Of a stretch of DNA of 19,683 nucleotides, positions 7,206-19,683 are shown in pieces. The notes beneath the pieces are model-generated. The model saw only the letters and a program-made list of their open reading frames with translations. It was not told where the DNA came from and searched no databases. This DNA comes from Phycisphaerae bacterium (GTDB lineage: Bacteria; Planctomycetota; Phycisphaerae; Sedimentisphaerales; Anaerobacaceae), in assembly GCA_030608075.1 (NCBI GenBank), contig JAUWIU010000034.1, positions 1 to 19,683 of the forward strand, given 5' to 3'. Every line of letters starts with the position of its first letter. Within the stretch, counting starts at the first letter, position 1. Both the position numbers and the translations under genes were made by a program.

Positions 7206-7456
7206 GATAAGGCACCTCGCGTTTGGTTTTTAAGAAGGTAGCGATATTCTTTTGTCAGCAATCCACAGGGGAAAAACGACCCCGCCTACGGTATTATAAC
7301 TTCTTTTTATCGGCTCGTCCAATAAATTAGGTAAAGTTTTTCTCATTTCTTTGCCGAATAAGACTAATGAGCCTCTAACTGTTTTCAGGGTTGAAAAGCC
7401 GTTTTTCTCCCAGGAACTTAGCTTTTCGGTGTGTTTCTGAATGGTGGGAAGGAACT

Positions 7457-8674
7457 ATGAGAACTATTGCAGTTGTGAATCAGAAAGGTGGTTGTGGAAA
7501 GACAACGGTATCGATAAACCTGGCAAGTGCGATTGCTGAGCTGGGATACAGGACCCTGCTGGTCGATATGGACCCGCAGTCGCACTGCGCAGTCGGCCTT
7601 GCCGTGCCGGAGGAGCAAATCGAGCAGAGTATCTACGATGTGCTTATAAGCAACAGTCGAAACGAGCCGATAAGGCTCGCCGAAATACTCTGGCAGATTG
7701 GCGACAAGCTGGAGCTGGCGCCGGCCAGTATAGACCTGTCTGCATTCGAGCAGCAGATGTCAGGTATTCTCGACCGCGAATACTGCTTGAAAAATGTTCT
7801 CAACAACGTGAAAAACGAATTCGACTACGCAATAGTAGATTGCCCGCCGGCGGTCGGGTTGTTGACATTCAATGCCCTACGGGCCGCAAGTGATGTTATT
7901 GTTCCCGTCGAGACCGGGTATTTTGCTCTGCACGGGTTGAGCAGACAGCTCGAAACGCTCAGCATACTTTGCAAACGCTGCAAACAAAATGTCAACGTAG
8001 GGGTTCTTGCGAGCATGTACGACATCAGGACAAGGATGGCCAGGGAAATTCTCGCTGAACTCAGAGAACACTTTGCCGACAAAATGCTCTCTACAATTGT
8101 CAATTTCAATACCAAGCTCAAGGAAGCCGCCAGTCTGGGCCAACCAATCAACGAATACGACCCTCTCAGCAAAGGCCAGACCAATTTTCGCGCATTAGCC
8201 GAGGAAATTACAGGCTCCCAGGCCAAGCAGCAGCGCCACGAGTATGTCAACTCGTTAGCCAACCAGCTTGCATCCATTAGTGCAACCGCTGATGAGTTGC
8301 TCCAGGCCGCAAAACCCCAAATAAAACCTGTCGAAACCTCCCCACAAACGGAAACGGCAAAGCAGGCAAAAACCGACGCAAAGCTCTCCGATTACTACGG
8401 CGTCACCCAGGTAAATAACGCAGTAGTCTTCGTTACCTTGGATCCTCGCGCCCAAAAAGTCCAGCTCGCCGGTGATTTCAATGATTGGCAGCCGGGCGAA
8501 AATGAATTGCAGAAGGTGGGTGATACCGGCGTCTGGCAGACAAAAATAAAACTGCCCGTGGGAAAATATCGCTATCGCCTCGTTGTAGACGGACAGTGGC
8601 AGCAGGACCCATATAATGAGCAGACAGAACTAAATCCGTTCGGCGACCTCAATTCCGTCCTTGATGTAAAGTAG
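7457..8674 (+). CDS. ParA/MinD/Soj-family P-loop ATPase fused to a C-terminal AMPK-beta-type glycogen-binding domain (CBM48), 405 aa.
   Basis: The track start at 7391 is a TTG. In-frame ATG at 7457 has a GGAAGG RBS. N-terminus carries the deviant Walker A motif NQKGGCGKTT and ParA-like motifs (IVDCPPAVGLL, VIVPVETGYFALHGL). A Q/A/K-rich linker follows. The C-terminus is FVTLDPRAQKVQLAGDFNDWQP...GKYRYRLVVDGQWQQDPYN...FGDLNSVLDV, which closely matches the AMPK beta-subunit / isoamylase N-terminal glycogen-binding fold (GxFNxW ... Y.Y.F.VDGQW..DP). Confidence 0.85.
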   Translation: MRTIAVVNQKGGCGKTTVSINLASAIAELGYRTLLVDMDPQSHCAVGLAVPEEQIEQSIYDVLISNSRNEPIRLAEILWQIGDKLELAPASIDLSAFEQQMSGILDREYCLKNVLNNVKNEFDYAIVDCPPAVGLLTFNALRAASDVIVPVETGYFALHGLSRQLETLSILCKRCKQNVNVGVLASMYDIRTRMAREILAELREHFADKMLSTIVNFNTKLKEAASLGQPINEYDPLSKGQTNFRALAEEITGSQAKQQRHEYVNSLANQLASISATADELLQAAKPQIKPVETSPQTETAKQAKTDAKLSDYYGVTQVNNAVVFVTLDPRAQKVQLAGDFNDWQPGENELQKVGDTGVWQTKIKLPVGKYRYRLVVDGQWQQDPYNEQTELNPFGDLNSVLDVK

Positions 8675-8764: not shown

Positions 8765-8858
8765 CCCCTGTCATTCCCGCGAACCCCTGTCATTCCCGCG
8801 AACCTATGTCATTGCCGCGAAACTTGTCCTGAGCGGAGCCGAAGGAGCGGGAATCCAG
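8765..8858. repeat. REP/BIME-like intergenic repeat. Three tandem ~19-bp units CCCTGTCATTCCCGCGAA (8765-8821), of which the third carries the left arm of a hairpin ATTCCCGC...GCGGGAAT. Homologous to the element at 12905-12956.
   Basis: Direct and inverted repeats read from the sequence. A 50-bp segment (TGTCATTsCsGCGAAACTTGTCCTGAGCGGAGCCGAAGGAGCrGGAATCCAG) is shared between the two loci. Confidence 0.6.
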
Positions 8859-8996: not shown

Positions 8997-9992
8997 ATGA
9001 GTAAAGCAAGACTCTTTGTTGTCGCGGGGTTGGCCGTTGCCGCCCTTGTCGCAATTCTTGTCATCGTGGCAAGGCACGGTAAGGCAACCGCAGTCCGGGA
9101 TATTGGCTCAAAGACCACAGAATCCACCGGAGCTATCGGCCTATCCGTATTGACGATGGGCAATCCCTTTTTCAAGGATATTGCTGACGCGATGCATATC
9201 GAAGCAGCCAAACATCACTATCGGGTCATTGTCGAATCCGGCGACAGCGACCCCGCCAAACAAAAAGACCAGGTCGCAAGCTTCATCGTCCAGAAGGTTG
9301 ATGCAATTGTCCTGTGTCCATGTGATTCCAAATCAATCGGAAGCTCCATCATCGCCGCCAATAAGGCCGGCATCCCTGTCTTCACCGCCGATATCGCCTG
9401 CCTCGCAGAAGGCGCCAAAGTCATCTGCCACGTGGCAACCGACAATTACGGCGGCGGACGTGAGGCGGCCAGGGCTATCATCGAAGCAATCGGAAACAGG
9501 GGCAAAGTCGCTATAGTCGACTACCCGGAGATAGAATCCGTCATCCTGCGGACAAACGGCTTCGAGGACGAGCTTGCACGCGCAAAAGCTGAAGACGGCG
9601 TAGACATTGAGATTGTTGCGAAGATACCCGGTATGGGCGAGGAAGCCCAGTCTTTCAAGGCCGCTGAGGACATTCTTCAGGCCCATCCAGACCTGGATGC
9701 AATCTTTGCCATAAATGACCCCTCCGCTATGGGAGTGGTCGCAGCAGTTGAGAAAGCCGGCAAAGGCGGCAGAATCAAAATCGTCGGATTTGACGGTATG
9801 CCTCGCGGGCGACTGGCTATCAGAGACGGAAAGGTTTACGCCGACCCTATTCAGTATCCCAAAAGAATAGGAACAACAACCGTAGAAGTCATAATGAAAT
9901 ACATGGCCGGAGAAAAAGTGCCGCCTGAAATTCTTATCCCGACTACGCTGTATCGAAAAACCGACGCCGAAAAAGACCCAACCCTTAAGTAG
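8997..9992 (+). CDS. Periplasmic sugar-binding protein of an ABC transporter (RbsB/Peripla_BP_1-like), membrane-anchored or signal-peptide bearing, 331 aa.
   Basis: N-terminal hydrophobic segment (LFVVAGLAVAALVAILVIVA). Typical type-I periplasmic binding protein motifs (GLSVLTMGNPFF, VDAIVLCPCDS, IPVFTADI, INDPSAMGVVAAVEKAGK). Gene context is with an ABC ATPase and permease. Confidence 0.85.
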   Translation: MSKARLFVVAGLAVAALVAILVIVARHGKATAVRDIGSKTTESTGAIGLSVLTMGNPFFKDIADAMHIEAAKHHYRVIVESGDSDPAKQKDQVASFIVQKVDAIVLCPCDSKSIGSSIIAANKAGIPVFTADIACLAEGAKVICHVATDNYGGGREAARAIIEAIGNRGKVAIVDYPEIESVILRTNGFEDELARAKAEDGVDIEIVAKIPGMGEEAQSFKAAEDILQAHPDLDAIFAINDPSAMGVVAAVEKAGKGGRIKIVGFDGMPRGRLAIRDGKVYADPIQYPKRIGTTTVEVIMKYMAGEKVPPEILIPTTLYRKTDAEKDPTLK

Positions 9993-10003
9993 AAAGAACC
10001 CTG

Positions 10004-11512
10004 ATGAACTTTAACAATACCCCTGACGCCAAGAGGCCTCTGGTGCAGATGGAGGGTATCGACAAGTCTTTTCCCGGTGTCAGGGCCTTGCGGAATGCTC
10101 GGCTCCGGCTTTATCCGGGCCAGGTTCTCGGCCTGGTCGGAGAAAACGGCGCCGGAAAGACCACCCTAATCAAGACCCTTTCCGGCGCGCACATGCCAGA
10201 CGCCGGCACCATCACAATTGACGGCGTCCAGCCGCATATTCGCACTCCCCTCGACGCCCAGAGGGCGGGGGTGGCGGTTATCTATCAGGAGTTCAATCTC
10301 GTCCCAACTCTCACCGCCCGCGAGAATATCTTTCTCGGCCGTGAAAAGGCAAAGTGCTCGTTCGTTTCGCGAAGGGCCGAACGTCGTCAGGTTCAGCGGC
10401 TTTTTGCCGATATCGGGGTGAGTATCGACCCCGAGGCCCTCTGCCGGGACCTGTCCGTAGCGCAGCAGCAGGTGGTCGAAATCGCCAAAGCAATCTCCAT
10501 AAGTGCCCGAATAGTCGTTATGGATGAACCCTCCGCCTGTCTTACGCCGCAGGAGGTCAAACGCTTGTTCGCCATCATACGAGACCTCAAAAAGCAGGGG
10601 ATAGGGGTCATTTACATCAGCCATCGTCTGGAGGAGATTTTCAAAATTGCCGACAGCGTTACTGTAATGCGCGACGGTGAGCACGTCACAACCCGCCCGG
10701 TCGGCGAGATAACAAGCGCCGAGCTGATAGAAATGATGGTTGGCCGCAGGCTGGAAAATGAGTTCCCCAAGGCAAAGACGCCTGTCGGCCCCGAGCGACT
10801 GGTGGTCAAAAAATTGTGCCGCGGCAGGGCCGTCAGAGATGTCTCCTTCAGCGTCAGGCGCGGTGAGGTGCTGGGCGTCACGGGCCTGGTCAGCGCCGGT
10901 CGCACCGAGGTCGCACGGCTTATCTTCGGCGCAGATGTCCCCGACAGCGGAAGCATAGAGCTTGACGCCAGACCGCTCTACATCCGCTCACCCCGCGACG
11001 CTATCGCCAATAGCATCTGCCTCTTGACCGAAGACCGCAAGGCCCAGGGGCTGGTTGCGGGATTGTCGGCCCATGAAAACTTTGCACTGCCGAATCTTTC
11101 GCACTGGTCACGAAATTCCTTTATCAACCCAAAAAAGGAACGCAGTGCATTTGCCCGCTACGTCAACAGCCTTAACATCAAGCTCGCCGACCAGCAGCAG
11201 CTCGCCGGCAACCTCTCCGGCGGAAATCAGCAGAAGCTGGTCCTGGCAAAATGGCTGGAATCAAACTCCGAAGTTGTCATCTTCGATGAGCCTACCCGCG
11301 GCATCGATGTCGGCTCAAAATACGAGATATACCTGCTCATTAACGAGCTGGCCGCTGCCGGCAAGGCCGTCATTATGATATCATCGGAGTTTGACGAGGT
11401 TCTCGGGATGAGCGACCGTATTATCGTTATGCACGACGGACGCATAAGCGGTGAAATCACCGATGTCGCCGCCGCAACGCAGGAACAAATTATGGCACTG
11501 GCCATCGCATAA
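10004..11512 (+). CDS. Sugar ABC transporter ATP-binding protein with duplicated ABC domains (RbsA/MglA/AraG-type), 502 aa.
   Basis: Walker A GENGAGKTT. Second, degenerate N-loop in domain 2. ABC signature LSGGNQQK. Walker B/D-loop VVMDEPSA and IFDEPTRGID. The two-domain architecture is typical of CUT2-family sugar importers. Confidence 0.9.
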   Translation: MNFNNTPDAKRPLVQMEGIDKSFPGVRALRNARLRLYPGQVLGLVGENGAGKTTLIKTLSGAHMPDAGTITIDGVQPHIRTPLDAQRAGVAVIYQEFNLVPTLTARENIFLGREKAKCSFVSRRAERRQVQRLFADIGVSIDPEALCRDLSVAQQQVVEIAKAISISARIVVMDEPSACLTPQEVKRLFAIIRDLKKQGIGVIYISHRLEEIFKIADSVTVMRDGEHVTTRPVGEITSAELIEMMVGRRLENEFPKAKTPVGPERLVVKKLCRGRAVRDVSFSVRRGEVLGVTGLVSAGRTEVARLIFGADVPDSGSIELDARPLYIRSPRDAIANSICLLTEDRKAQGLVAGLSAHENFALPNLSHWSRNSFINPKKERSAFARYVNSLNIKLADQQQLAGNLSGGNQQKLVLAKWLESNSEVVIFDEPTRGIDVGSKYEIYLLINELAAAGKAVIMISSEFDEVLGMSDRIIVMHDGRISGEITDVAAATQEQIMALAIA

Positions 11513-11533
11513 AATGCAACCGCCTTTGTCGAT

Positions 11534-12877
11534 ATGGAAATGCCAATGAGCATATTAAGGTCGAACAGCAGAATGTCACGCTTTCTGGCAGACTACGGTA
11601 TACTCGGTGTATTGCTGCTGCTCTGCCTGTACTACTCGGTCCGTACGCTCAAACAGCAGCATCCAACCGGTGAGGCGGCCGCTGAAATTCTCGCCCGGAA
11701 AATCTCCCGCTCTTTCGAAAGCTCTGCGAAGGTAGTTATCGCTGCCAAGACCGGCAGAGAAAATCTGGCATTTGCAGATACCCTCAACGAGCTGCTTGAA
11801 AAAGCCGGCTTTAAAATCGTACGCAGTATAAAGGGCGACCCGCTTTCTATCCGAAATGCCTTCGGCAACCTTGCCGACAGCGGCCTGCGCGCCGACACCA
11901 TCGCCACCACACGCGACTACGTCAACGTCGTCCGCAATATCAAAGCAAAGTTCCCGGCACTGGCCGAGGTAACCATCAGCACACCTGACGGCTATCTTTG
12001 GCCGACTTTTCTGCTGCGGGCCAATCTTCTTAACATATCAAACCAAATCGCCGTGATTGCCATTGTAGCGGTCGGCATGACGATGGTTATCGTCACAGGA
12101 GGAATCGACCTTTCCGTCGGCAGCCTGGTGGCCTTTTCCGCAGTGGTCGCAGCCTGGCTGATTCGCCGCACAGGCGGCGCCAATGCGTCCGGCATTGCAA
12201 TGGCTGGTAGCTGCGCCGCCGCCATAATCCTCTGCGCCGTCATCGGCACTTTTTCCGGGGCAATGGTCACCCGGTTCAGGATAGCGCCCTTCATTGTCAC
12301 GCTCGCCGTCATGCAGATGGCACGCGGCCTGGCCTATCTCATAGCAAAGGGTAAACCAATCTACCAAATCCCAGACTCATTCCTCTGGCTCGGACGCGGC
12401 GCTGAGCCCTTCTTCTCCATACCATACGCCGTGATACTTATGGCAATTATCTACATCTCTGCGCACATAATGATGTCCCATACCACGTTAGGCCGCTACA
12501 TCTACGCGGTCGGCGGAAACATCGAAGCCGCACGACTCTCCGGAGTCCGCGTCAATGCAATTCTGCTGCTGGTCTACACCGTAATCGGCGCGCTGGCCGG
12601 CGTCGGCGGAATCGTTATGGCATCACAGCTAAAAAGCGGAGCACCAACCTTCGGCAATATGTACGAGCTGTATATAATTGCCGCCGCCGTTGTCGGAGGG
12701 GCAAGTCTAAAAGGCGGAGAGGGAAAAATCTTCGGCACGCTCATAGGTGCGTTCATCATCGCTGTCATTAACAACGGGATGAACCTCACAAACGTGGAAA
12801 GCTACACGCAAAAGGTCGTCCTCGGCCTCGTTATCCTCGGCGCAGTCCTGCTCGACACCATCAAAAAACGCAGGTAA
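11534..12877 (+). CDS. ABC transporter permease (RbsC/BPD_transp_2 family) with an atypical ~120-aa hydrophilic insertion between TM1 and TM2, 447 aa.
   Basis: C-terminal ~290 aa match RbsC-like permeases (IAVIAIVAVGMTMVIVTGGIDLSVGSLVAF...). The N-terminus has one TM (YGILGVLLLLCLYYSV) followed by a soluble alpha/beta-like segment (AKVVIAAKTGRENLAFADTLNELLEKAGFKIVRSIKG...) before the conserved core. Alternative starts at 11543 and 11570 are possible. Confidence 0.85.
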   Translation: MEMPMSILRSNSRMSRFLADYGILGVLLLLCLYYSVRTLKQQHPTGEAAAEILARKISRSFESSAKVVIAAKTGRENLAFADTLNELLEKAGFKIVRSIKGDPLSIRNAFGNLADSGLRADTIATTRDYVNVVRNIKAKFPALAEVTISTPDGYLWPTFLLRANLLNISNQIAVIAIVAVGMTMVIVTGGIDLSVGSLVAFSAVVAAWLIRRTGGANASGIAMAGSCAAAIILCAVIGTFSGAMVTRFRIAPFIVTLAVMQMARGLAYLIAKGKPIYQIPDSFLWLGRGAEPFFSIPYAVILMAIIYISAHIMMSHTTLGRYIYAVGGNIEAARLSGVRVNAILLLVYTVIGALAGVGGIVMASQLKSGAPTFGNMYELYIIAAAVVGGASLKGGEGKIFGTLIGAFIIAVINNGMNLTNVESYTQKVVLGLVILGAVLLDTIKKRR

Positions 12878-14764: not shown

Positions 14765-15136
14765 ATGCCGAAAACAAAAATAACAATATATCAGGAACAG
14801 GCTGAAGTTGTGCCACTGTTGGATTGGTTGGACGAACAGTCTGAGAAGGTGCAGGATAAATGTATCGCTAAAATCAGGCGGCTGGAGAAAATGGGCCTTG
14901 AACTCCGCAGGCCGGAATGTGATTACTTGTCAGAGGGCATCTATGAGTTGAGAGTAAAAGGTAATAAGGTAAATTATCGTATTCTGTATGCCTTTTCAGG
15001 GAAAAATGCAGTTTTGCTTTCGCACGGCTGCACAAAAGGAAGGAAAGTCCCCAGGAAAGAGATAAAAAGAGCAATGAAAAACCTTGCGGAATACAAACGA
15101 AACCCACGCAAACATACTTTCAATGGAGAGTTGTAA
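14765..15136 (+). CDS. higB: Type II toxin-antitoxin system toxin, RelE/ParE superfamily (HigB-like / phage Gp49-like), 123 aa.
   Basis: Small basic protein encoded upstream of an HTH antitoxin (HigBA order: toxin first). Motif pattern matches Gp49/HigB-like toxins: LLDWLDEQ...KIRRLEKMGLELRRP...LSEGIYELRVKGNKVNYRILYAF...VLLSHGCTKGRKVPRKEIKRA. Confidence 0.65.
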   Translation: MPKTKITIYQEQAEVVPLLDWLDEQSEKVQDKCIAKIRRLEKMGLELRRPECDYLSEGIYELRVKGNKVNYRILYAFSGKNAVLLSHGCTKGRKVPRKEIKRAMKNLAEYKRNPRKHTFNGEL

Positions 15137-15138
15137 CA

Positions 15139-15462
15139 ATGGCTAAAAAGCAAAAAACAACAACCGATGCTGTTAAGATACTTCACAAGCGGTATATAAA
15201 TACACCCGCAAGGCGAAAATCTCTGGAAAAAGAAATACAAAATTCAGAGATAGCAGCCCGCATATACGAACTTCGCCAACAGGCAAAACTTAGCCAGAAA
15301 CAGCTTGCCGAACTCATAGGGACAACTCAATCAGTTATAAGCCGCCTTGAGGACGCTGATTATAAAGGCCATAGCCTTGAAATGCTTCGCCGGGTAGCAA
15401 CAGTGCTTCATTGCAAACTGAAAGTCCGGATAGTACCGGAAAACAAGTACGCCTACGCTTAA
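15139..15462 (+). CDS. higA: HTH XRE-family antitoxin (HigA-like), 107 aa.
   Basis: 2-nt gap after the toxin gene. GGAGAG RBS. Helix-turn-helix segment LSQKQLAELIGTTQSVISRLE, typical of Xre/HigA antitoxins. Confidence 0.65.
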   Translation: MAKKQKTTTDAVKILHKRYINTPARRKSLEKEIQNSEIAARIYELRQQAKLSQKQLAELIGTTQSVISRLEDADYKGHSLEMLRRVATVLHCKLKVRIVPENKYAYA

Positions 15463-15465
15463 CTG

Positions 15466-15534
15466 CATTTCCTTCTTCTCAACATCACCGCACCGAGGGC
15501 GAGAAGGAAGCGAGGCGAAGGAAACAGGTCGTCA
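15466..15534. repeat. Repeat copy A of a ~50-90-bp element family. Core TTCTCAACATCACCGC at 15476-15491, with CTTCTC/GAGAAG inverted arms.
   Basis: Shares 21 bp (TTTCCTTCT..CAACATCACCGC) and downstream blocks (CACCgAgGgCGAGAAG, GGAAGCG, GTCaTCAT) with copy C at 17794-17880. Confidence 0.6.
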
Positions 15535-15586
15535 TTAATGAGGATGCATTCAAAACTGGCTGAGAGTTTCCCTCTGCAACACGTGG

Positions 15587-16825
15587 TCAGGCTAACTTGC
15601 TTACTGCTTCGACGACCAGTTTGCCTATTGGCAGATGCTGCGGGCAGCGAGCCTCTGCAAGCCTGTAATCGGTAGCGAGTAGTTTGTTTCTTACTCTACC
15701 TGGGATTTCAGCAAACAGCTTCCTTGCTTTATCATACTCGCCGTAGCTATTGTAGTACATCAAATAACGCATAATATCACTAACGTAAGGTGCATTCGGC
15801 AGAACCGAGTTACAGATGTATGCACAGCCGGCACAATAACCGCTGCAACTCGCCTGGGTGTATGCATCGAAAACCTCGATATCCGTCTGCGAGAGTTTGG
15901 TTTTATCAAGCACTGCTGCAATATTTGAAGTCAGCAAGGCAACATTCTGCATCGCAACACACGCTGAGCTTATCCTCTTGTCTTCCAGCACAGCTTTTAT
16001 TTTTGCCTGTCCCTCGGTAAAACCTCGTTTAAGAAAATGCTCGGCCAGTTTTTTATCCTCGTCAGCTTTAATCTTTTTGCCCTGGGTTTTCATGGCAATA
16101 AGACCGATACCTGCTTTATAACACGCCTCGATAGCAGCCTGCATTTTATCGTCCTTCATCAATCGGAAGTTATAAGCTGTCTGTATCGCATCAATCCAAC
16201 CACATCTTGCTGCGGCTGAGAGACATCGGGACATATTCTTGTGAGTGCTGAAACCGAAAAAGCGAATCAGTTTCCTTTTCTTTGCACCTTCAGCCCACCT
16301 CTTCACTTCATCCGTTAACTGGCCTGGGTCGTACATTCGGTAAACCCCAAAGTACAGGTCGACATATTTGGTATGCATACGTTTCAGGGACGTCTGCAGA
16401 CATTTTTCTAAGTCTGCCGCTGTTTTTGAATCGGATTCCTTGGTGACAATAAACAATTCTTTTCGCACTTCGCGGTTCTTAGAAATGTATTTACCTATAC
16501 TTATCTCACTGTTTCCGCCTGCGGCAACGAGGGATGTATCCCAATGGTTGACTCCCCATTCGAGGGCCTTTCTCAAAACTATCGGTTCTCCAGCGCCGAA
16601 ACCAAGAGCCAGACACGGAATTTCAACTCCTGTTTTGCCTAACTTTCGTCTCGGCACTTGCGGTAATTTGGGCTTTTGTATTTTTTCTTTAGCATTAGGG
16701 TCAGTGACGTTTGGCTCGTTTGGAGCAGCCATCCCATTAGCACCAGCCAAGGCCGAACCTAAACCAGCAGCTCCCATCGTCTTCAGAAAATTCCTTCTAT
16801 CGATTTTATCTTGTTTTTCCTTCAT
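15587..16825 (-). CDS. Tat-exported aldo/keto reductase family oxidoreductase with a C-terminal Cys-rich (putative Fe-S) region, ~412 aa.
   Basis: Twin-arginine signal (DRRNFLKTMGAAGLGSALA). AKR-like core (ELFIVTKE..., GFSTH). C-terminal CSGYCAGCAYIC cluster (C-x3-C-x2-C-x3-C) plus an additional Cys, resembling COG1453-type AKR/Fe-S proteins. The track start at 16840 is a TTG with no SD. ATG at 16825 has a GGAG RBS. Confidence 0.75.
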   Translation of the reverse strand: MKEKQDKIDRRNFLKTMGAAGLGSALAGANGMAAPNEPNVTDPNAKEKIQKPKLPQVPRRKLGKTGVEIPCLALGFGAGEPIVLRKALEWGVNHWDTSLVAAGGNSEISIGKYISKNREVRKELFIVTKESDSKTAADLEKCLQTSLKRMHTKYVDLYFGVYRMYDPGQLTDEVKRWAEGAKKRKLIRFFGFSTHKNMSRCLSAAARCGWIDAIQTAYNFRLMKDDKMQAAIEACYKAGIGLIAMKTQGKKIKADEDKKLAEHFLKRGFTEGQAKIKAVLEDKRISSACVAMQNVALLTSNIAAVLDKTKLSQTDIEVFDAYTQASCSGYCAGCAYICNSVLPNAPYVSDIMRYLMYYNSYGEYDKARKLFAEIPGRVRNKLLATDYRLAEARCPQHLPIGKLVVEAVSKLA

Positions 16826-16850
16826 CGAATCAATCTCCAAAAAAATTCAG

Positions 16851-16880
16851 CGTTTTCTCAACATCACCGTCGCTGAAAGT
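16851..16880. repeat. Repeat copy B, truncated. CAGCGTTTTCTCAACATCACCG, core at 16855-16869. Overlaps the stop codon of the GIY-YIG-like gene.
   Basis: 25-bp match to copy C (CAGCGTTT(CC)TTCTCAACATCACCG). Confidence 0.5.
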
Positions 16881-17301
16881 TCCGCGGGGGATATTCTTTG
16901 TACAGTTTATAGTAATCGTTTAGTAATTCGGTCTCTGCCTGTTTTAGGGATTCCGCAGTGCCAAAAGGTTTATAAGCAATTTCGATACCGCCATAGTGGG
17001 TAATAATGTAACGGTATAAAGGCGAATTTTCACCAGAACAAAAAGCCTCAGCATACTTCATATATCTTCTATACAAAGTCTGCTTGGTTTGGCCGATGTA
17101 TACGATATTGCTTTCGGATTTAACTCTTGGTATCTTTTTTTCACAGACAAAGGCATATAAGACATTAGAGACATCCTTTGCTTCTTGAGAACCAAATACT
17201 TGCCTGAACTCACGCAAACAATCCTTTTTAGATTTATGGCTTTGGATGCTATTCGGTAAAGTGGCACAGGAACGAAAGAACTTTGATAGTGTTATAGCCA
17301 T
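16864..17301 (-). CDS. Small protein with a probable GIY-YIG nuclease-like domain, 145 aa.
   Basis: LYAFVCEK followed ~10 residues later by IVYIGQTKQTLYRRYMKY, with a downstream conserved Glu (AETELLNDYYKLY). This fits the GIY-x10-YIG...R...E pattern. Family assignment is by motif only. Confidence 0.5.
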   Translation of the reverse strand: MAITLSKFFRSCATLPNSIQSHKSKKDCLREFRQVFGSQEAKDVSNVLYAFVCEKKIPRVKSESNIVYIGQTKQTLYRRYMKYAEAFCSGENSPLYRYIITHYGGIEIAYKPFGTAESLKQAETELLNDYYKLYKEYPPRNFQRR

Positions 17302-17340
17302 TTCAATTGCCCTTTTCTACTTAAAAAGTTTCCTCCTCAT

Positions 17341-17385
17341 TATAACCGCACCAAGGCCGAGCAGCCAGAGAATACGATTACTTTA
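17341..17385. repeat. Repeat copy D, partial and divergent. AACCGCACCAAGGCCGAGCAG. On the minus strand it ends GGTGCGGTTATAATGAGGAGGAAAC.
   Basis: Aligns with the CACCAAAGCCGAGAAG block and the GCGGTGATGTTGAGAAGGAAAC end of copy C. Lies between two co-oriented minus-strand genes. Confidence 0.4.
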
Positions 17386-17390
17386 TCGCT

Positions 17391-17774
17391 TTAATGTTCT
17401 TCATTTTTTTGCTTCCACTCTTTGTAAAGCTTCTTTATCTCAAGTAACCAAACCCGTAATCTTTCCTCAGGGTCGAGTATAGGTTTTCTTCCAATTTCTT
17501 CAAAAAGACCCACAAAAAACCCTTTTCCTGGTAACTGGGCACCTTCCTTGTGTATAACTAAAGCTGACAAAAGAGGGTTGCCCTTTTTGTGTTCTTCCGA
17601 GGAAATTTCACCCAGAATATCTCTCAGTTTTTTATGCTGACCTTCTTCCCAAGACTCCTGTTCGTTAATACCCATCTCATGTAATAAATCCCCGTATGTA
17701 ATAAGGTCTTCCTTTGAGGCAAGTTCTTTGAGTCGCTTATATACATATTCTTTCATTTGAGCGTAATTCAGCAT
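17391..17774 (-). CDS. Hypothetical protein, 127 aa.
   Basis: Clean ORF with ATG start, co-oriented with its neighbours. Charged, no TM segment. No family recognized. Confidence 0.55.
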   Translation of the reverse strand: MLNYAQMKEYVYKRLKELASKEDLITYGDLLHEMGINEQESWEEGQHKKLRDILGEISSEEHKKGNPLLSALVIHKEGAQLPGKGFFVGLFEEIGRKPILDPEERLRVWLLEIKKLYKEWKQKNEEH

Positions 17775-17793
17775 TATGCTATCTTTCCTTTTC

Positions 17794-17880
17794 AGCGTTT
17801 CCTTCTCAACATCACCGCCTGTCGTGAGCGAAGCCGAACGGCACCAAAGCCGAGAAGCAAAATAGGAAGCGGTTCAGTCA
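17794..17880. repeat. Repeat copy C, the longest. Core TTCTCAACATCACCGC at 17804-17819. CTTCTC...GAGAAG arms flank a ~45-nt loop.
   Basis: Homologous to A, B and D (see the findings). On the minus strand it begins at the TGA stop of ORF 17874-18176 and ends ~35 nt before the start of ORF 17391-17774. Confidence 0.6.
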
Positions 17881-18176
17881 TCTTTTCTGTTTTTGAATGT
17901 AACAAGAAGTCCGCCAGTTACAGCGACCACAAGAGACCATTGGATTGCCAATCCTTTGCTGTCGATACGCTTGCGGTGATAACTAATCGGTTGCTCGGCC
18001 ATCTCGTCAAGAGACTTTTTTGTAGCAGCCATTTGTTCCAGTGTTAATGGGCTTGCTGGGTAGCGTGGCTTTCGCAATCGGAAAGTAGTAGTATAGTTGC
18101 ACAATTGGGCGAGACCCAATACTACAAAGATAGCAATTCCAGTCCAAAGAATTATCTTCTGTTTTCTGTTCACCAC
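17874..18176 (-). CDS. Small membrane protein, two predicted TM helices, 100 aa (GTG start).
   Basis: Hydrophobic segments IILWTGIAIFVVLGLAQL and LAIQWSLVVAVTGGLLVTF. Only a GTG start is available and the SD is weak. Confidence 0.45.
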   Translation of the reverse strand: MVNRKQKIILWTGIAIFVVLGLAQLCNYTTTFRLRKPRYPASPLTLEQMAATKKSLDEMAEQPISYHRKRIDSKGLAIQWSLVVAVTGGLLVTFKNRKDD

Positions 18177-18207
18177 TTACCGAATCTCGTATGGATTTCA
18201 ATTAACA

Positions 18208-18714
18208 TCAGACGCCAGCAAGCCAGTTTTCGGCCAGAATAGCAAAGTCCAGAGCATTTACCTTGCCATCACCATTGAGGTCGCCAGATAGTTCTGGTTC
18301 CGTTGCAGCAGGTCGAAAATAACCGAGTATTGTTAGCGAGCTGTAAAGTTTGCCAACAATGAAGTACAAGGATTCGCCAGATACAACTACAAGGCAACCA
18401 TCAGGGTATTCCTGCCTATACTGAAAGGGTTCACCTGTAGGCGTACTTCGAAAACTACCGTCAATAACAGTAGTTCCAGATTTTAATTTCCAAAATGTAT
18501 AATAGCCACCAGAGGTTTTAACTCCGTACGAGCTTTCCACATAAGCTCGAAGTAGAACCAATTCTTTGTCTTTGGGTACGGTAGTGACAAGATATTCACC
18601 GCTCTCTACCTTGTGGAGATGGGCAGAGAATCCATCACAGTCCTCACAAAGAGGCGAAGCAAAGAGAGACTCACAGCAGATAAACAGGAAAATATTGAGG
18701 ATTAACTTTTTCAT
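18208..18714 (-). CDS. Secreted protein with a C-terminal dockerin-like / EF-hand-like calcium-binding repeat, 168 aa.
   Basis: Strong RBS (AAGGAGG, 8 nt spacing). Signal peptide MKKLILNIFLFICCESLFA. C-terminal GDLNGDGKVNALDFAILAENWL matches the D-x-N-x-D-G-x-V-N-x-x-D dockerin type-I repeat pattern. Confidence 0.7.
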   Translation of the reverse strand: MKKLILNIFLFICCESLFASPLCEDCDGFSAHLHKVESGEYLVTTVPKDKELVLLRAYVESSYGVKTSGGYYTFWKLKSGTTVIDGSFRSTPTGEPFQYRQEYPDGCLVVVSGESLYFIVGKLYSSLTILGYFRPAATEPELSGDLNGDGKVNALDFAILAENWLAGV

Positions 18715-18774
18715 CGTTTTTACCTCCTTTTGTGTTAAGGCGGTGGCTTCACCAGAGCTGCCGCATTTTTTTGT

Positions 18775-18924
18775 TTACTTATTTTCGGCCTGTTTTTCTA
18801 CTATCATTTCAGCGATGTCTTTTTTATCCCGTTCTGATAGCTTGTAGTTTCTGGTTTGTATGCAGCCATGATAGCAAATAACAAATATTAAAGACATAGC
18901 AAGAAGCAAGGTTTTAATTCTCAT
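18775..18924 (-). CDS. Unannotated small ORF, 49 aa, signal-peptide/lipoprotein-like (MRIKTLLLAMSLIFVICYHGC...).
   Basis: Below the track's 60-aa cutoff. ATG with AGGAGA RBS. Hydrophobic N-terminus followed by Cys residues, and a charged C-terminus (SERDKKDIAEMIVEKQAENK). Confidence 0.4.
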   Translation of the reverse strand: MRIKTLLLAMSLIFVICYHGCIQTRNYKLSERDKKDIAEMIVEKQAENK

Positions 18925-19172
18925 TTTCTTCTCCTTTCAAAAAATCTTTGATATTTTGACGCGCCTGCACCGCGCAGACGCTTAATCCGCACACGCTAAA
19001 CTCCGATTATTCGCGTTTATGCCTCTTCTTCTCTTTCCCCCATTTTTGAAAAGCGATATTATTATAACCGGCTTGGTTTGCTTGTCAAGCAAAAAACTCC
19101 TTTGGGTAAAAATTACGTAGTTTCCACAATAGGGACAAATCGCCAGGAACGCAGCTATTTCTTGCCATTTGA

Positions 19173-19262
19173 CCCCTTGTGCCCTTATGCTCTTATGCTC
19201 TTATGCTCTTGTGCCCTTATGTTCTTGTCTCTTGTGCCCTTGTGCTCTTATGTTCTTGTTCT
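19173..19262. repeat. Tandem array of ~11 copies of an 8-bp unit CYCTTRTG (CCCTTATG/CTCTTATG/CTCTTGTG/TTCTTGT).
   Basis: Read directly from the sequence. The unit length is not a multiple of 3, so the overlapping track ORFs are artefacts. Lies ~50 bp upstream of a strong promoter. Confidence 0.75.
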
Positions 19263-19311
19263 CTCCGTCCTCTGCGCTCTCTGTGGTGAATTCTTTTTAT
19301 TCGTTTTTTTG

Positions 19312-19340
19312 TTGACTTTTGTTTGAAAATCTGTTAAAAT
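19312..19340 (+). promoter_or_regulatory. Near-consensus sigma70 promoter: TTGACT (19312-19317), 17-bp spacer, TAAAAT (19335-19340).
   Basis: Hexamers and spacing read from the sequence. Predicted TSS ~19347, about 310 nt upstream of the next start codon. Confidence 0.55.
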
Positions 19341-19346
19341 ACCTGC

Positions 19347-19655
19347 ATGTTTGCCAGAAGGCAAACGACAAACCGGCCGCAGGCGCCGGATATAGCGGAG
19401 AACCGCACGTTTTCGTATCAGCAGACACACGCCAAAAAGCATTATTTGTCAAGCCAGACAAGGTTTTGAACATTTACATTTGTTTACCCCGTGAGATAGT
19501 GAAGCGTTATCTAATGGGGTGTAATTTGGATTTTGATATTGTTTCGAATTGCGTTATTAGGATTTCGGATTTCAGTCTGCCGGATAACTCCTTATGCAGC
19601 AAGCTCTTATAGCCAACAGAATTATCTGGTTTTTTAGTACATAGGAGGCCTGTTC
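19347..19655 (+). ncRNA. Candidate structured 5' leader / cis-regulatory RNA (riboswitch- or attenuator-like) of the gene starting at 19656. Ends in terminator hairpin CCGGAUAA...UUAUCUGG + U6 (19580-19635).
   Basis: Several hairpins: GTTTGCC-agaa-GGCAAAC at 19349-19366, CCGGC...GCCGG, GCGG-agaa-CCGC, CTTGTC...GACAAG, CCCC..GAGATA...TATCTA..GGGG. A terminator-like stem plus T6 sits immediately before the AGGAGG RBS. The terminator loop contains ACUCCUUAUG, complementary to the SD region CAUAGGAGG. No known riboswitch consensus recognized. Confidence 0.4.
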
Positions 19656-19683
19656 ATGGCTACCGAACCCCAAACCCTACCAA
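19656..19683 (+). CDS. 5' end of a gene of unknown function (MATEPQTLP...), continues beyond the window.
   Basis: ATG with AGGAGG Shine-Dalgarno 8 nt upstream. Only 9 codons are visible. Confidence 0.4.

Follow-up and report, generated by a model that had tools for sequence, protein, structure and literature searches.

We found that a single uninterrupted open reading frame in a stretch of Phycisphaerae DNA of 19,683 nucleotides (the window) encodes a 405-aa protein in which a ParA-type ATPase is joined through a linker to a CBM48 glycogen-binding module. The explanation that fits best, which we hold at somewhat less than even confidence, is that the gene is the chromosomal Soj-type ParA of the class Phycisphaerae with a CBM48 module added on a flexible tether, through which it would also tether or sense glycogen. 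That the fusion may be a chromosomal ParA, and not a granule-only system, is suggested by its Soj-type ATPase, by the ParB of the clade, which keeps its ParA-binding peptide, and by the flanks of parB, where no plain parA was seen and the fusion was the sole parB-adjacent ParA.

The protein, with the N-terminus MRTIAVVNQKGGCGKTT, starts from the ATG at position 7457, in agreement with the N-termini of its homologues (M1 in 109 of 137), and its full-length homologues are 66-100% identical to it. The two-domain composition given in the initial annotation held up in the profile searches: both halves scored above the Pfam cut-offs, and their folds were those of Soj/ParA and of the AMPK beta1 glycogen-binding domain. 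Both domains lie in one frame, as that annotation had read them, and the same architecture was present in hundreds of independent genomes, which together rule out an error of sequencing or assembly. The protein lacks a signal peptide, which makes an extracellular polysaccharide an unlikely ligand, and a PADLOC search with the fusion protein gave no meaningful match to a defence system. The features of the gene are collected in Table 1.

Table 1. Features of the ParA-CBM48 fusion gene, in window coordinates
Feature	Position	Strand	Details
Shine-Dalgarno-like purine-rich stretch GGGAAGGA	7446..7453	+	3 nt 5' of the ATG; read from the sequence
Complete ParA-linker-CBM48 gene	7457..8674	+	405 aa plus stop codon; Pfam finds both domains
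Soj/ParA-type deviant Walker A ATPase domain	7457..8221	+	aa 1-255; Pfam, PDB sequence matches, AF2, Foldseek
Deviant Walker A, NQKGGCGKTT	7478..7507	+	aa 8-17; signature K10, catalytic K15, family-specific C13
Walker A', DMDPQSH	7565..7585	+	aa 37-43; D37, D39, family-specific H43
Walker B, YAIVDCPP	7826..7849	+	aa 124-131; D128 in 137/137 representatives
Extension of the last ParA helix, with the conserved motif NSLANQLASISATADELLQAAKP	8222..8314	+	aa 256-286
Disordered flexible tether	8315..8383	+	aa 287-309; pLDDT <50 for aa 290-308
CBM48/AMPK-beta-type glycogen-binding domain	8384..8671	+	aa 310-405, including the pre-CBM motif KLSDYYGV; Pfam, AF2, Foldseek
Span of the predicted sugar-contact residues	8486..8653	+	W344, R374, W381, F395, N399, equivalent to AMPK beta1 W100, K126, W133, L146, N150

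The ATPase half matched the Pfam profiles AAA_31 (aa 1-180, E 5.8e-50) and CbiA (aa 4-231, E 1.9e-19), and also the CBP_BcsQ profile (E 2.3e-13). Among the PDB sequences, Myxococcus xanthus ParA (8RAY) scored 175 bits and Thermus thermophilus Soj 151 bits, compared with 58-63 bits for MinD and 45 bits for McdA. The AF2 model of this domain, with a pLDDT of 90-98 over aa 1-250, gave the same order in Foldseek: the target-normalised TM was 0.93 for 9A6N and 0.92 for both 8RAY and 2BEK (rmsd 1.6-1.8 Å; 37-39% identity to Soj/ParA), and it was 0.83 for McdA, about 0.8 for MinD, and 0.75-0.81 for BcsQ as more remote relatives. The amphipathic membrane-targeting helix that ends MinD-type proteins is absent, the C-terminus being the CBM48 domain.

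The nucleotide-binding motifs were nearly invariant among 137 divergent family representatives, with K10 and K15 kept in 136 and both D37 and D39 in all of them. Three substitutions set the family apart from Soj, namely C13 (116/137; V in Soj), H43 (136/137; N in Soj), and F/Y138, where Soj has L, and the Soj hallmark PRNVR reads NFNTK in the window protein. At the positions used for DNA binding in Soj (M. xanthus R238, which corresponds to Bacillus subtilis R218, and B. subtilis R189), the residues of the window protein are K220 and R191; in the family as a whole, R occupies position 191 in 53/137, K/R position 220 in 85/137, and R/K position 222 in 127/137. The pocket for the ParB peptide was scored at M. 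xanthus V116, L150, L152, L155, L187, and L192. Its core was kept (I/V/L for L150 in 132/137, L/I/V/M for L152 in 129/137, and F/Y for L155 in 124/137) and its periphery was remodelled, with A/Q/S for V116, variable residues for L187, and mostly hydrophobic ones for L192. The pocket of T. thermophilus Soj also deviates, at 152 and 187, and that of the fusion family is no more divergent.

Between the two domains, AF2 modelled one helix spanning aa 239-285 (pLDDT 82-88). Distant members have its conserved motif as well, and the spacing of the motif from the ParA domain varies; a strict form of the pattern was found in 28 of 140 linkers compared with 5.0 ± 2.1 in shuffles, and a jackhmmer search started from it gave no extension of the motif. 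The linker is rich in A, P, and E and varies from 20 to 295 aa across the family, with the insertions of close homologues concentrated past aa 298, and the full-length AF2 model did not pack the two domains confidently (pTM 0.67). We considered whether the linker helix mimics the ParB peptide in cis. The two share the hydrophobic spacing of 0, +4, +7, and +8, but the position of the basic residue was inconsistent. Because of this, and because such spacing is generic for amphipathic helices, we give the idea a low probability.

The C-terminal region matched the Pfam profiles AMPK1_CBM (aa 331-405; E 4.6e-12, 46.4 bits, gathering score 26.8) and CBM_48 (aa 315-386; E 1.6e-9, 38.4 bits, gathering score 22.4) and aligned end to end with the CBMs of AMPK beta1 and beta2. 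AF2 modelled the CBM region with a pLDDT of 96-98 (91.2 for a separate model of the domain), and the top fold match was 1Z0M (TM 0.88, rmsd 1.9 Å, E 8e-8), followed by the CBM48 modules of branching enzymes. The region had been described from the sequence as a very close match to AMPK beta; profile, fold, and key residues agree with the family assignment, but the wording was too strong for an identity of about 28% to the beta1 CBM. In AMPK, the residues W100, K126, W133, and L146 act in glycogen binding (PMC2642990). Four of the five documented carbohydrate-contact positions of rat beta1 (W100, K126, W133, L146, and T148) are kept in >84% of 140 divergent family members: W344 was present in 139, R/K at R374 in 136, W381 in 135, and F/Y/L at F395 in 118, and N/D was found at N399 in 123. 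The exception is T148, which is D397 in the window protein and E, G, or D in the family.

Roughly a dozen proteins form a genuine group of stand-alone CBM48 paralogues with an N-terminal region of their own. The nearest are 54-65% identical to the fusion CBM, have the pre-CBM motif in common with it, and without exception belong to a glycogen synthase-GH57(-GH77) cluster; one comes from a MAG that also contains a fusion gene. Instead of the ParA domain, they carry a basic lysine-rich N-terminal peptide (MKTLKTIKNKIKKAV and similar). Most of the other short matches that looked like stand-alone CBM48 proteins were fragments of the fusion caused by frameshifts or contig ends, with the ParA piece directly upstream and the same PurE-Memo synteny. 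The initial annotation had predicted that the C-terminal module binds alpha-glucan, and the four conserved AMPK contact positions, the AMPK-like fold, and the paralogues in glycogen synthase-GH57 operons all support this prediction.

A survey of its taxonomic distribution found the fusion in at least 543 species genomes, with named carriers in the Sedimentisphaerales, the Phycisphaerales/Phycisphaeraceae, and the Tepidisphaeraceae. Among the 150 most similar clusters (50% identity), 140 had an N-terminal ParA and a C-terminal CBM; the ATPase motifs and the glycogen-contact residues were conserved across the family, and a family-profile search returned the same clade again. No publication linking ParA to glycogen or CBM48 emerged from a literature search, and glycogen granules in Phycisphaerae were not documented in the searchable literature.

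We searched the gene neighbourhood for a conserved operon partner, and none emerged in the clade of the window. The neighbours clustered over 80 fusion loci were housekeeping or secreted (Hsp20, SPFH, a PEP-CTERM protein, PurE, and Memo) and showed housekeeping synteny only, without parB or glycogen genes; no gene for an McdB-like adaptor or activator was found among them, and no glycogen gene adjoined the fusion in 81 loci. In three other orders, a conserved uncharacterised gene with a product of 473-565 aa lies 3' of the fusion. Its product, which has an LFL N-terminus, was rejected as a degenerate ParA/MinD (hhalign probability 0.6%; no Pfam or PDB match). A ParB_N gene lies near the glycogen operon in one locus (L084) and is separated from the fusion by 5-9 kb in three others (L004, L010, and L048). 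It was also rejected as a partner because it has the ParB_N domain only, scores 43 bits against a ParB cut-off of 58 bits, and sits in a cassette of HTH, ABC-like, and unknown genes.

Neither parB nor parS was present anywhere in the 19.7-kb window, consistent with the earlier statement that no parB adjoins the gene, and both were absent from 79 of the 81 fusion loci. The two exceptions were L054 and L055. The clade nevertheless has a canonical ParB, with the near-invariant N-terminal ParA-binding peptide HLGRGLxSLL (for example, KPKHLGRGLASLLGPI), and one or two parS sites upstream of its parB (31 matches in 148 kb, 0 in shuffles). A search of the flanks of parB found no plain parA in about 20 orthologous clade loci, whereas in four loci from other phyla, as a positive control, it picked up a classic parA-parB pair. 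The only ParA that we saw beside a clade parB was the fusion itself, which directly followed parB in four loci (L054, L092, L097, and L130) and lay 6.7 kb from it in L055. The lack of an adjacent parB holds for the window, but the description of the gene as an orphan ParA is not established and is probably incomplete.

From the domain identities, residue conservation, taxonomic spread, glycogen-operon paralogues, and ParB/parS distribution that we observed, we infer the physical interactions of the following mechanism. On binding ATP, two ParA domains would pair up via the signature K10 as a sandwich dimer, as the observed motifs suggest, and a basic patch (R191, K220, and K222) that is only partly conserved in the family would seat the dimer on the nucleoid. 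Unlinked ParB, loaded at parS, may then engage the hydrophobic groove at the dimer interface through HLGRGLxSLL, leading to the usual chromosome segregation, a step to which the gene distribution points. The two CBM48 modules of each dimer, on tethers of 20-295 aa, would bind the alpha-glucan surface of glycogen particles, judging from the conserved contact residues, the fold, and the glycogen-operon paralogues. Glycogen granules would in this way be reversibly tied to nucleoid-bound ParA, spread along the nucleoid, and inherited with the chromosomes, and the tie would be released by ATP hydrolysis. It is conceivable, although we hold this more loosely, that one ATP switch on the nucleoid partitions both DNA, via ParB-parS, and the carbon store, via the CBM48 arms, or that it gates segregation by glycogen status, with the lysine-rich stand-alone CBM48 proteins acting as granule-bound co-factors.

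The chromosomal role is supported by the ATPase half, which is nearest to Soj/ParA and not to McdA, MinD, or BcsQ, and by the retained core of the ParB pocket. Against it, parA and parB lie apart in most genomes, as cognate pairs seldom do, and a plain Soj may sit elsewhere in the genome, given that the search covered individual loci; the DNA-binding arginine positions are only partly conserved, and the periphery of the ParB pocket is remodelled. Glycogen tethering is disfavoured by a fusion that never lies beside glycogen genes in 81 loci, and a ParA permanently joined to its cargo misfits the standard diffusion-ratchet scheme, where the cargo carries the activator. The fusion could instead be a dedicated, ParB-independent ParA-like ATPase with glycogen granules as its only cargo and the adaptor fused in cis, while a separate plain ParA serves ParB; ATP-dependent nucleoid binding followed by hydrolysis would then space the granules and partition them at division. 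The general lack of parB/parS at the fusion loci, the family's own signature (C13, H43, and F/Y138), distinct from Soj, and the conserved CBM contact residues with paralogues in glycogen operons all agree with such a system, for which a dedicated partner could be encoded by the conserved gene 3' of the fusion in three other orders, and a granule-bound activator could be supplied by the basic N-terminal peptide of stand-alone CBM48 proteins. We consider it unlikely, however, as no plain parA was seen beside any clade parB, yet the ParA-binding peptide of ParB is preserved, no ParA but the fusion was seen to adjoin parB, and the ATPase is nearest to chromosomal Soj/ParA and not to the cargo-positioning McdA (45 bits; TM 0.83). 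The initial annotation had proposed a dedicated storage-granule positioning system; this is not established and is probably incomplete, the ATPase being of the Soj/chromosomal type and granule positioning a prediction.

Two further readings depend on what the CBM48 domain does. It may report on glycogen, as in AMPK, and its binding may sequester or allosterically modulate ParA, so that the state of the carbon store would feed into segregation, and possibly into replication or division control. Profile and fold both assign the domain to the AMPK-beta type, and in AMPK the glycogen-binding domain of the beta subunit makes the kinase a glycogen sensor (PMC2642990). The conserved helix motif of the tether could mediate intramolecular regulation, and the ParA half belongs to the chromosomal type; we nevertheless find this reading rather improbable, because a long, variable, and mostly disordered linker (20-295 aa) is better matched to reaching and tethering than to a fixed allosteric interface, the AF2 model has no confident interdomain packing, and any regulatory output would be hypothetical. 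Alternatively, the C-terminal beta-sandwich could be a protein-interaction module or a binder of another polymer, or the whole protein could resemble BcsQ in serving as a scaffold that positions enzymes of polysaccharide synthesis and does not handle granules. CBM48-type folds can serve as protein interfaces, and the AMPK CBM also packs on the kinase domain; the CBP_BcsQ profile match, the absence of the fusion from any glycogen operon, and the unconserved AMPK T148 point the same way. With four of five AMPK contact positions maintained across divergent members, the closest paralogues in glycogen synthase-GH57 operons, a BcsQ fold far more distant (TM 0.75-0.81) than that of Soj (0.92-0.93), and no signal peptide, we regard this as very unlikely.

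Compared with the chromosomal Soj/ParA proteins of T. thermophilus (1WCV/2BEK), M. xanthus (8RAY), Helicobacter pylori (6IUB), and B. subtilis (9A6N), the fusion has the same fold and intact Walker A, A', and B motifs, and it is alike in the basic residues at the DNA-binding positions of the window protein, in the hydrophobic core of the ParB groove, and in the canonical ParB-parS of its clade. It differs in its usual lack of linkage to parB, in the four sequence departures given above, in DNA-binding arginines that the family keeps only in part, and in a 150-aa C-terminal extension of helix, disordered tether, and CBM48 that is found in no described Soj. With McdA-McdB of carboxysomes, PpfA-TlpT, and PomXYZ, it would share a ParA-type ATPase with a non-DNA cytoplasmic cargo, and the common logic is likely to be ATP-dependent nucleoid binding combined with cargo attachment. 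Unlike these systems, the fusion has its cargo module built into the same polypeptide and, in the clade of the window, lacks a neighbouring adaptor gene; it is also much nearer to Soj than to McdA in both sequence and fold, and it has the signature lysine. Candidates for a cargo-borne activator are the basic N-terminal peptide of the stand-alone CBM48 proteins and the downstream protein of the other orders.

The AMPK beta CBM (1Z0M, 1Z0N, and 4YEF) gave the best profile and fold match, with W100, K126 (as R), W133, and L146 (as F) kept, whereas the fusion CBM is carried by a bacterial P-loop ATPase and not by a kinase scaffold subunit, with no ADaM-site or kinase-domain context. The CBM48 modules of GlgB, GlgX, and pullulanase and the stand-alone Phycisphaerae proteins belong to the same Pfam families (CBM_48, GlgB_N, and X25-like), but the fusion has no catalytic domain. 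PhaM of Ralstonia eutropha tethers PHB granules to the nucleoid so that the granules are inherited with the DNA; it is no ATPase, and its DNA binding resides in a lysine-rich tail that resembles histones. The fusion would follow the same concept of a tether between storage granule and nucleoid, with an ATP-switchable ParA as its proposed DNA-binding part, and the closer formal analogue of PhaM is the group of lysine-rich stand-alone CBM48 proteins.

To our knowledge, no mechanism is known for the placement and inheritance of bacterial glycogen granules, and the ParA/MinD ATPases that position plasmids, chromosomes, carboxysomes, chemoreceptor arrays, and division sites always do so via a separate adaptor. 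The Phycisphaerae, as far as we know, lack FtsZ and divide in an unusual way. A class-wide fusion of ParA with a glycogen module suggests that in these bacteria the DNA-moving machinery is physically linked to the sugar store, a link that has not been described before. If true, glycogen would have its first candidate machinery of this kind, and the fusion would represent a new design principle, in which cargo binding is built into the ATPase. If the fusion is also the chromosomal ParA, it would physically connect DNA segregation to energy storage in the Phycisphaerae.

The fusion gene lies in a single ORF spanning window positions 7391 to 8674 (+). Its start was assigned to the ATG at 7457, which follows a purine-rich, SD-like GGGAAGGA, gives a 405-aa protein, and agrees with the N termini of the homologues (M1 in 109/137). 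The ORF check bore out the coordinates of the initial annotation and the continuity of its two domains in one frame, and both halves scored above the Pfam thresholds, with NCBIfam in agreement (ParA/RepA/MinD-type models at the N terminus; GlgB models, through their CBM48 part, at the C terminus). Calling the C-terminal half a "very close match" to AMPK beta was an overstatement, its identity to the AMPK beta1 module being ~28%.

A 60-sequence family alignment gave a confident AlphaFold2 model (mean pLDDT 91.8). The top superpositions of its ParA domain were all chromosomal Soj/ParA proteins (rmsd 1.6 to 1.8 Å), i.e., B. subtilis Soj 9A6N (TM 0.93), M. xanthus ParA 8RAY (TM 0.92), and T. thermophilus Soj (TM 0.92), whereas McdA (TM 0.83), MinD (~0.8), and BcsQ (0.75 to 0.81) were more distant. 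Sequence scores of this half were 175 bits for 8RAY, 151 for Soj, 63 for MinD, and 45 for McdA. The C-terminal domain, modeled by itself (pLDDT 91.2), had the AMPK beta1 glycogen-binding domain 1Z0M as its top fold match (TM 0.88, rmsd 1.9 Å), followed by branching-enzyme CBM48 modules.

Of the 137 divergent members, 136 retain K10 and K15 and every one retains D37, D39, and D128, which predicts an active ATPase. The family also carries the signatures KGGCGKT (C13 in 116/137; V in Soj) and DPQxH (H43 in 136/137; N in Soj). The CBM displays a pattern of strong purifying selection on its predicted sugar-binding face. Its N399 we take to be the N150 contact position of AMPK beta1, and the AMPK T148 position shows no conservation in the family CBMs. 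Carbohydrate-contacting positions of AMPK beta1 are W100, K126, W133, and L146 (PMC2642990), matched in the fusion by W344, R374, W381, and F395, respectively.

Locations of the domains, residues, and genes discussed in the text
Feature	Location	Support or remark
AAA_31	fusion aa 1-180	Pfam, E 5.8e-50
CbiA	fusion aa 4-231	Pfam
AMPK1_CBM	fusion aa 331-405	Pfam, 46.4 bits; gathering score 26.8
CBM_48	fusion aa 315-386	Pfam, 38.4 bits; gathering score 22.4
ParA domain	fusion aa 1-255	AlphaFold2
Long single helix, continuing the last ParA helix	to fusion aa 285	AlphaFold2, pLDDT 82-88
Disordered stretch	fusion aa 290-308	AlphaFold2, pLDDT <50
Beta-sandwich	fusion aa 310-405	AlphaFold2, pLDDT 96-98
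W344	fusion CBM	W in 139/140
R374	fusion CBM	R or K in 136/140
W381	fusion CBM	W in 135/140
F395	fusion CBM	F, Y or L in 118/140
N399	fusion CBM	N or D in 123/140
Lone canonical parB, Sedimentisphaerales	L093-L116, e.g. L095 5622-6948; L106 5422-6948	no adjoining parA
Downstream 473-565-aa protein, other orders	L138 9675-11126; L139 7551-8972; L141 9467-11116	
Stand-alone CBM48	L084 3134-3604; L086 6001-6441; L088 5001-5348; L089 1797-2144; L090 2133-2552	third gene of glycogen synthase-GH57 operon
Five-gene cassette	L084 4718-7728; L086 7957-10969	also L004, L010, L048, upstream of fusion

The fusion family is large and old. It forms >120 clusters at 90% identity (full-length identity 72 to 100%) and is encoded in at least 543 species-representative genomes, with a single copy in each genome represented in the 80 retained loci. 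An exhaustive HMMER search covered 1.84 billion representatives at 50% identity; among the best 150 matches, which were inspected, identity falls to 35 to 40%, 140 place ParA at the N terminus and the CBM at the extreme C terminus, and the linker measures 20 to 295 aa (median, ~145). Because the named members, entered as "AAA family ATPase" or "chromosome partitioning protein," come from Sedimentisphaerales, Phycisphaerales/Phycisphaeraceae, and Tepidisphaeraceae, the family spans the class Phycisphaerae. The "ParA-only" relatives seem to be gene calls that were cut short. Frameshifts in several long-contig ENA assemblies (L081 to L083) break the fusion gene into two or three ORFs, creating spurious "stand-alone" CBM48 and short ParA calls in protein databases. 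One locus of typical Sedimentisphaerales synteny (L070, JAIVYN010000135.1) is labeled "Candidatus Aegiribacteria sp." and many others "uncultured Pirellulales," probably through mis-binning or automatic naming rather than true taxonomic spread. The best matches also included P0254 (WP_305767917.1), an 1812-aa protein of the giant bacterium Candidatus Epulopiscium viviparus that lacks a ParA domain and carries 17 CBM48-like repeats in tandem.

The linker, enriched in A, P, and E, is largely unconserved. One helix motif within it is conserved, reading NSLANQLASISATADELLQAA in the window and [ST]RAAEL[AV]xRAxxL[LA] or [HQ]ADxLxxxAxxLLAT elsewhere and lying 9 to 226 aa past the ParA domain; 28/140 linkers match its strict form, versus 5.0 ± 2.1 shuffled ones. 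A second motif, [KR][IL]xx[FY]YGV, is part of the CBM module and recurs in stand-alone CBM48 paralogues.

The protein had been called an orphan ParA, which holds for the 19.7-kb window, where neither parB nor parS was found, but not for all of its relatives: at L054 a canonical ParB (ParB_N, 124 bits; HTH_ParB, 116; ParB_C, 50) is encoded 324 nt upstream of the fusion on the same strand, and at L055 parB and two perfect parS sites lie 6.7 kb away. The order parB then fusion recurs in the same-species loci L092, L097, and L130. At 80 related loci, the fusion is surrounded by housekeeping genes in conserved synteny (SPFH, Hsp20, a secreted PEP-CTERM protein, PurE, and Memo). We sought relatives of the L054 ParB in metagenomes and inspected their surroundings. 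No ParA adjoined parB in ~20 loci with clade ParB orthologues (64 to 83% identical), 13 of which had ≥900 nt upstream and six 4.8 to 6 kb on both sides; parA and parB are therefore unlinked in Sedimentisphaerales. As a positive control, distant ParBs of other phyla (L120, L125, L126, and L127) have a classic plain parA directly upstream.

The clade ParB has a near-invariant N terminus, KP[KR]HLGRGLxSLLGPI, the canonical ParA-binding peptide, corresponding to L11, R13, L15, L18, and I19 of M. xanthus ParB (PMC12462528). Each lone parB gene is preceded, at 100 to 700 nt, by one or two parS copies (TGTTTCACGTGAAACA) that are perfect or nearly so (31 matches in 148 kb, 0 in shuffles). Since the peptide is kept and parS lies upstream, some ParA partner must exist, and the fusion's ParB groove keeps its hydrophobic core. 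On the simplest reading of these locus neighborhoods, ParA-CBM48 would be this partner, which would make it the chromosomal ParA throughout Phycisphaerae; a plain Soj may, however, be encoded elsewhere in the genomes.

No parB was found within 8 kb of the fusion in Phycisphaeraceae, Tepidisphaeraceae, or Phycisphaerales. A gene for a homologous 473- to 565-aa protein lies there 53 to 123 nt downstream on the same strand, its product being a candidate partner of the fusion. Its members share the motif [DE][IV]xx[LHR]LFL near the N terminus and the core VVAAYxxLK; they had no match in Pfam or PDB, and none was found in the Sedimentisphaerales loci searched. A ParA-like core in it was unsupported (hhalign probability, 0.6%).

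Short CBM-only matches proved mostly to be fusion-gene fragments. A real stand-alone CBM48 group (115 to 156 aa, 54 to 65% identical to the fusion's CBM) lies in alpha-glucan clusters in 5/5 cases examined, with GT5/GT4 glycogen synthase and GH57, and longer contigs add GH77 amylomaltase and a second GH57. One such cluster (L084) and a fusion locus (L001) belong to the same MAG. Their N-terminal peptide, e.g., MKKAKTVKKKIVRK or MKTLKTIKNKIKKAV, is lysine rich, has no hydrophobic signal-peptide core, and could bind DNA or ParA; the proteins may be granule-nucleoid tethers or ParA cofactors. At L090 and L091, a gene for an HU-like DNA-binding protein directly follows. A recurring five-gene cassette (HTH-like protein, ABC-like ATPase with a weak mad3 match, 258-aa unknown, ParB_N-only protein, and 141-aa unknown) sits beside the glycogen operon in some genomes, whereas in others it lies 3 to 9 kb from the fusion.

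In the intergenic region just 3′ of the fusion, a 19-nt unit, CCCCTGTCATTCCCGCGAA, occurs three times in tandem (window 8765 to 8821, 92% matches). The sequence after this array, GCGGGAATCC, can pair with the unit's TTCCCGC part; the arrangement may be REP/MITE-like or may form a terminator-like structure. In most related genomes (L003 to L078), the next gene encodes a secreted PEP-CTERM/P-domain protein, with PurE-Memo beyond it, whereas the window lacks the PEP-CTERM gene and has at this place (8997 to 12877) three genes for a sugar ABC transporter (binding protein, ATPase, and permease). Positions 15000 to 19683, with GC of 0.40 to 0.46 versus 0.51 to 0.59 in the remainder and several short minus-strand ORFs, could represent foreign or variable DNA.

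We tentatively favor, at somewhat less than even confidence, a Soj-type chromosomal ParA that also holds glycogen particles while the same ATPase serves ParB-parS segregation; we infer all of the physical interactions. In this model, each ATP-bound ParA dimer on the nucleoid would hold glycogen particles with its pair of tethered CBM48 arms, granules would be distributed over the chromosomes and passed on with them, and ParB-parS would draw on the same ATPase for segregation. The dedicated granule system independent of ParB that the initial annotation proposed fits the parB-less window, but parB near the fusion in a few relatives speaks against it, and we consider it unlikely. An AMPK-like glycogen sensor modulating ParA would suit a CBM with a fold nearest that of AMPK beta1 and a ParA half nearest Soj but seems less probable again. 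That no glycogen genes adjoined the fusion at the loci examined would suit a ligand other than glycogen, or a scaffold role, but the stand-alone paralogues sit among such genes, and this reading appears quite improbable.

A full-text literature search found nothing linking ParA to glycogen or CBM48. The architecture is a variation on the ParA/MinD positioning theme in which the cargo-binding module is fused in cis, possibly on the chromosomal ParA itself.
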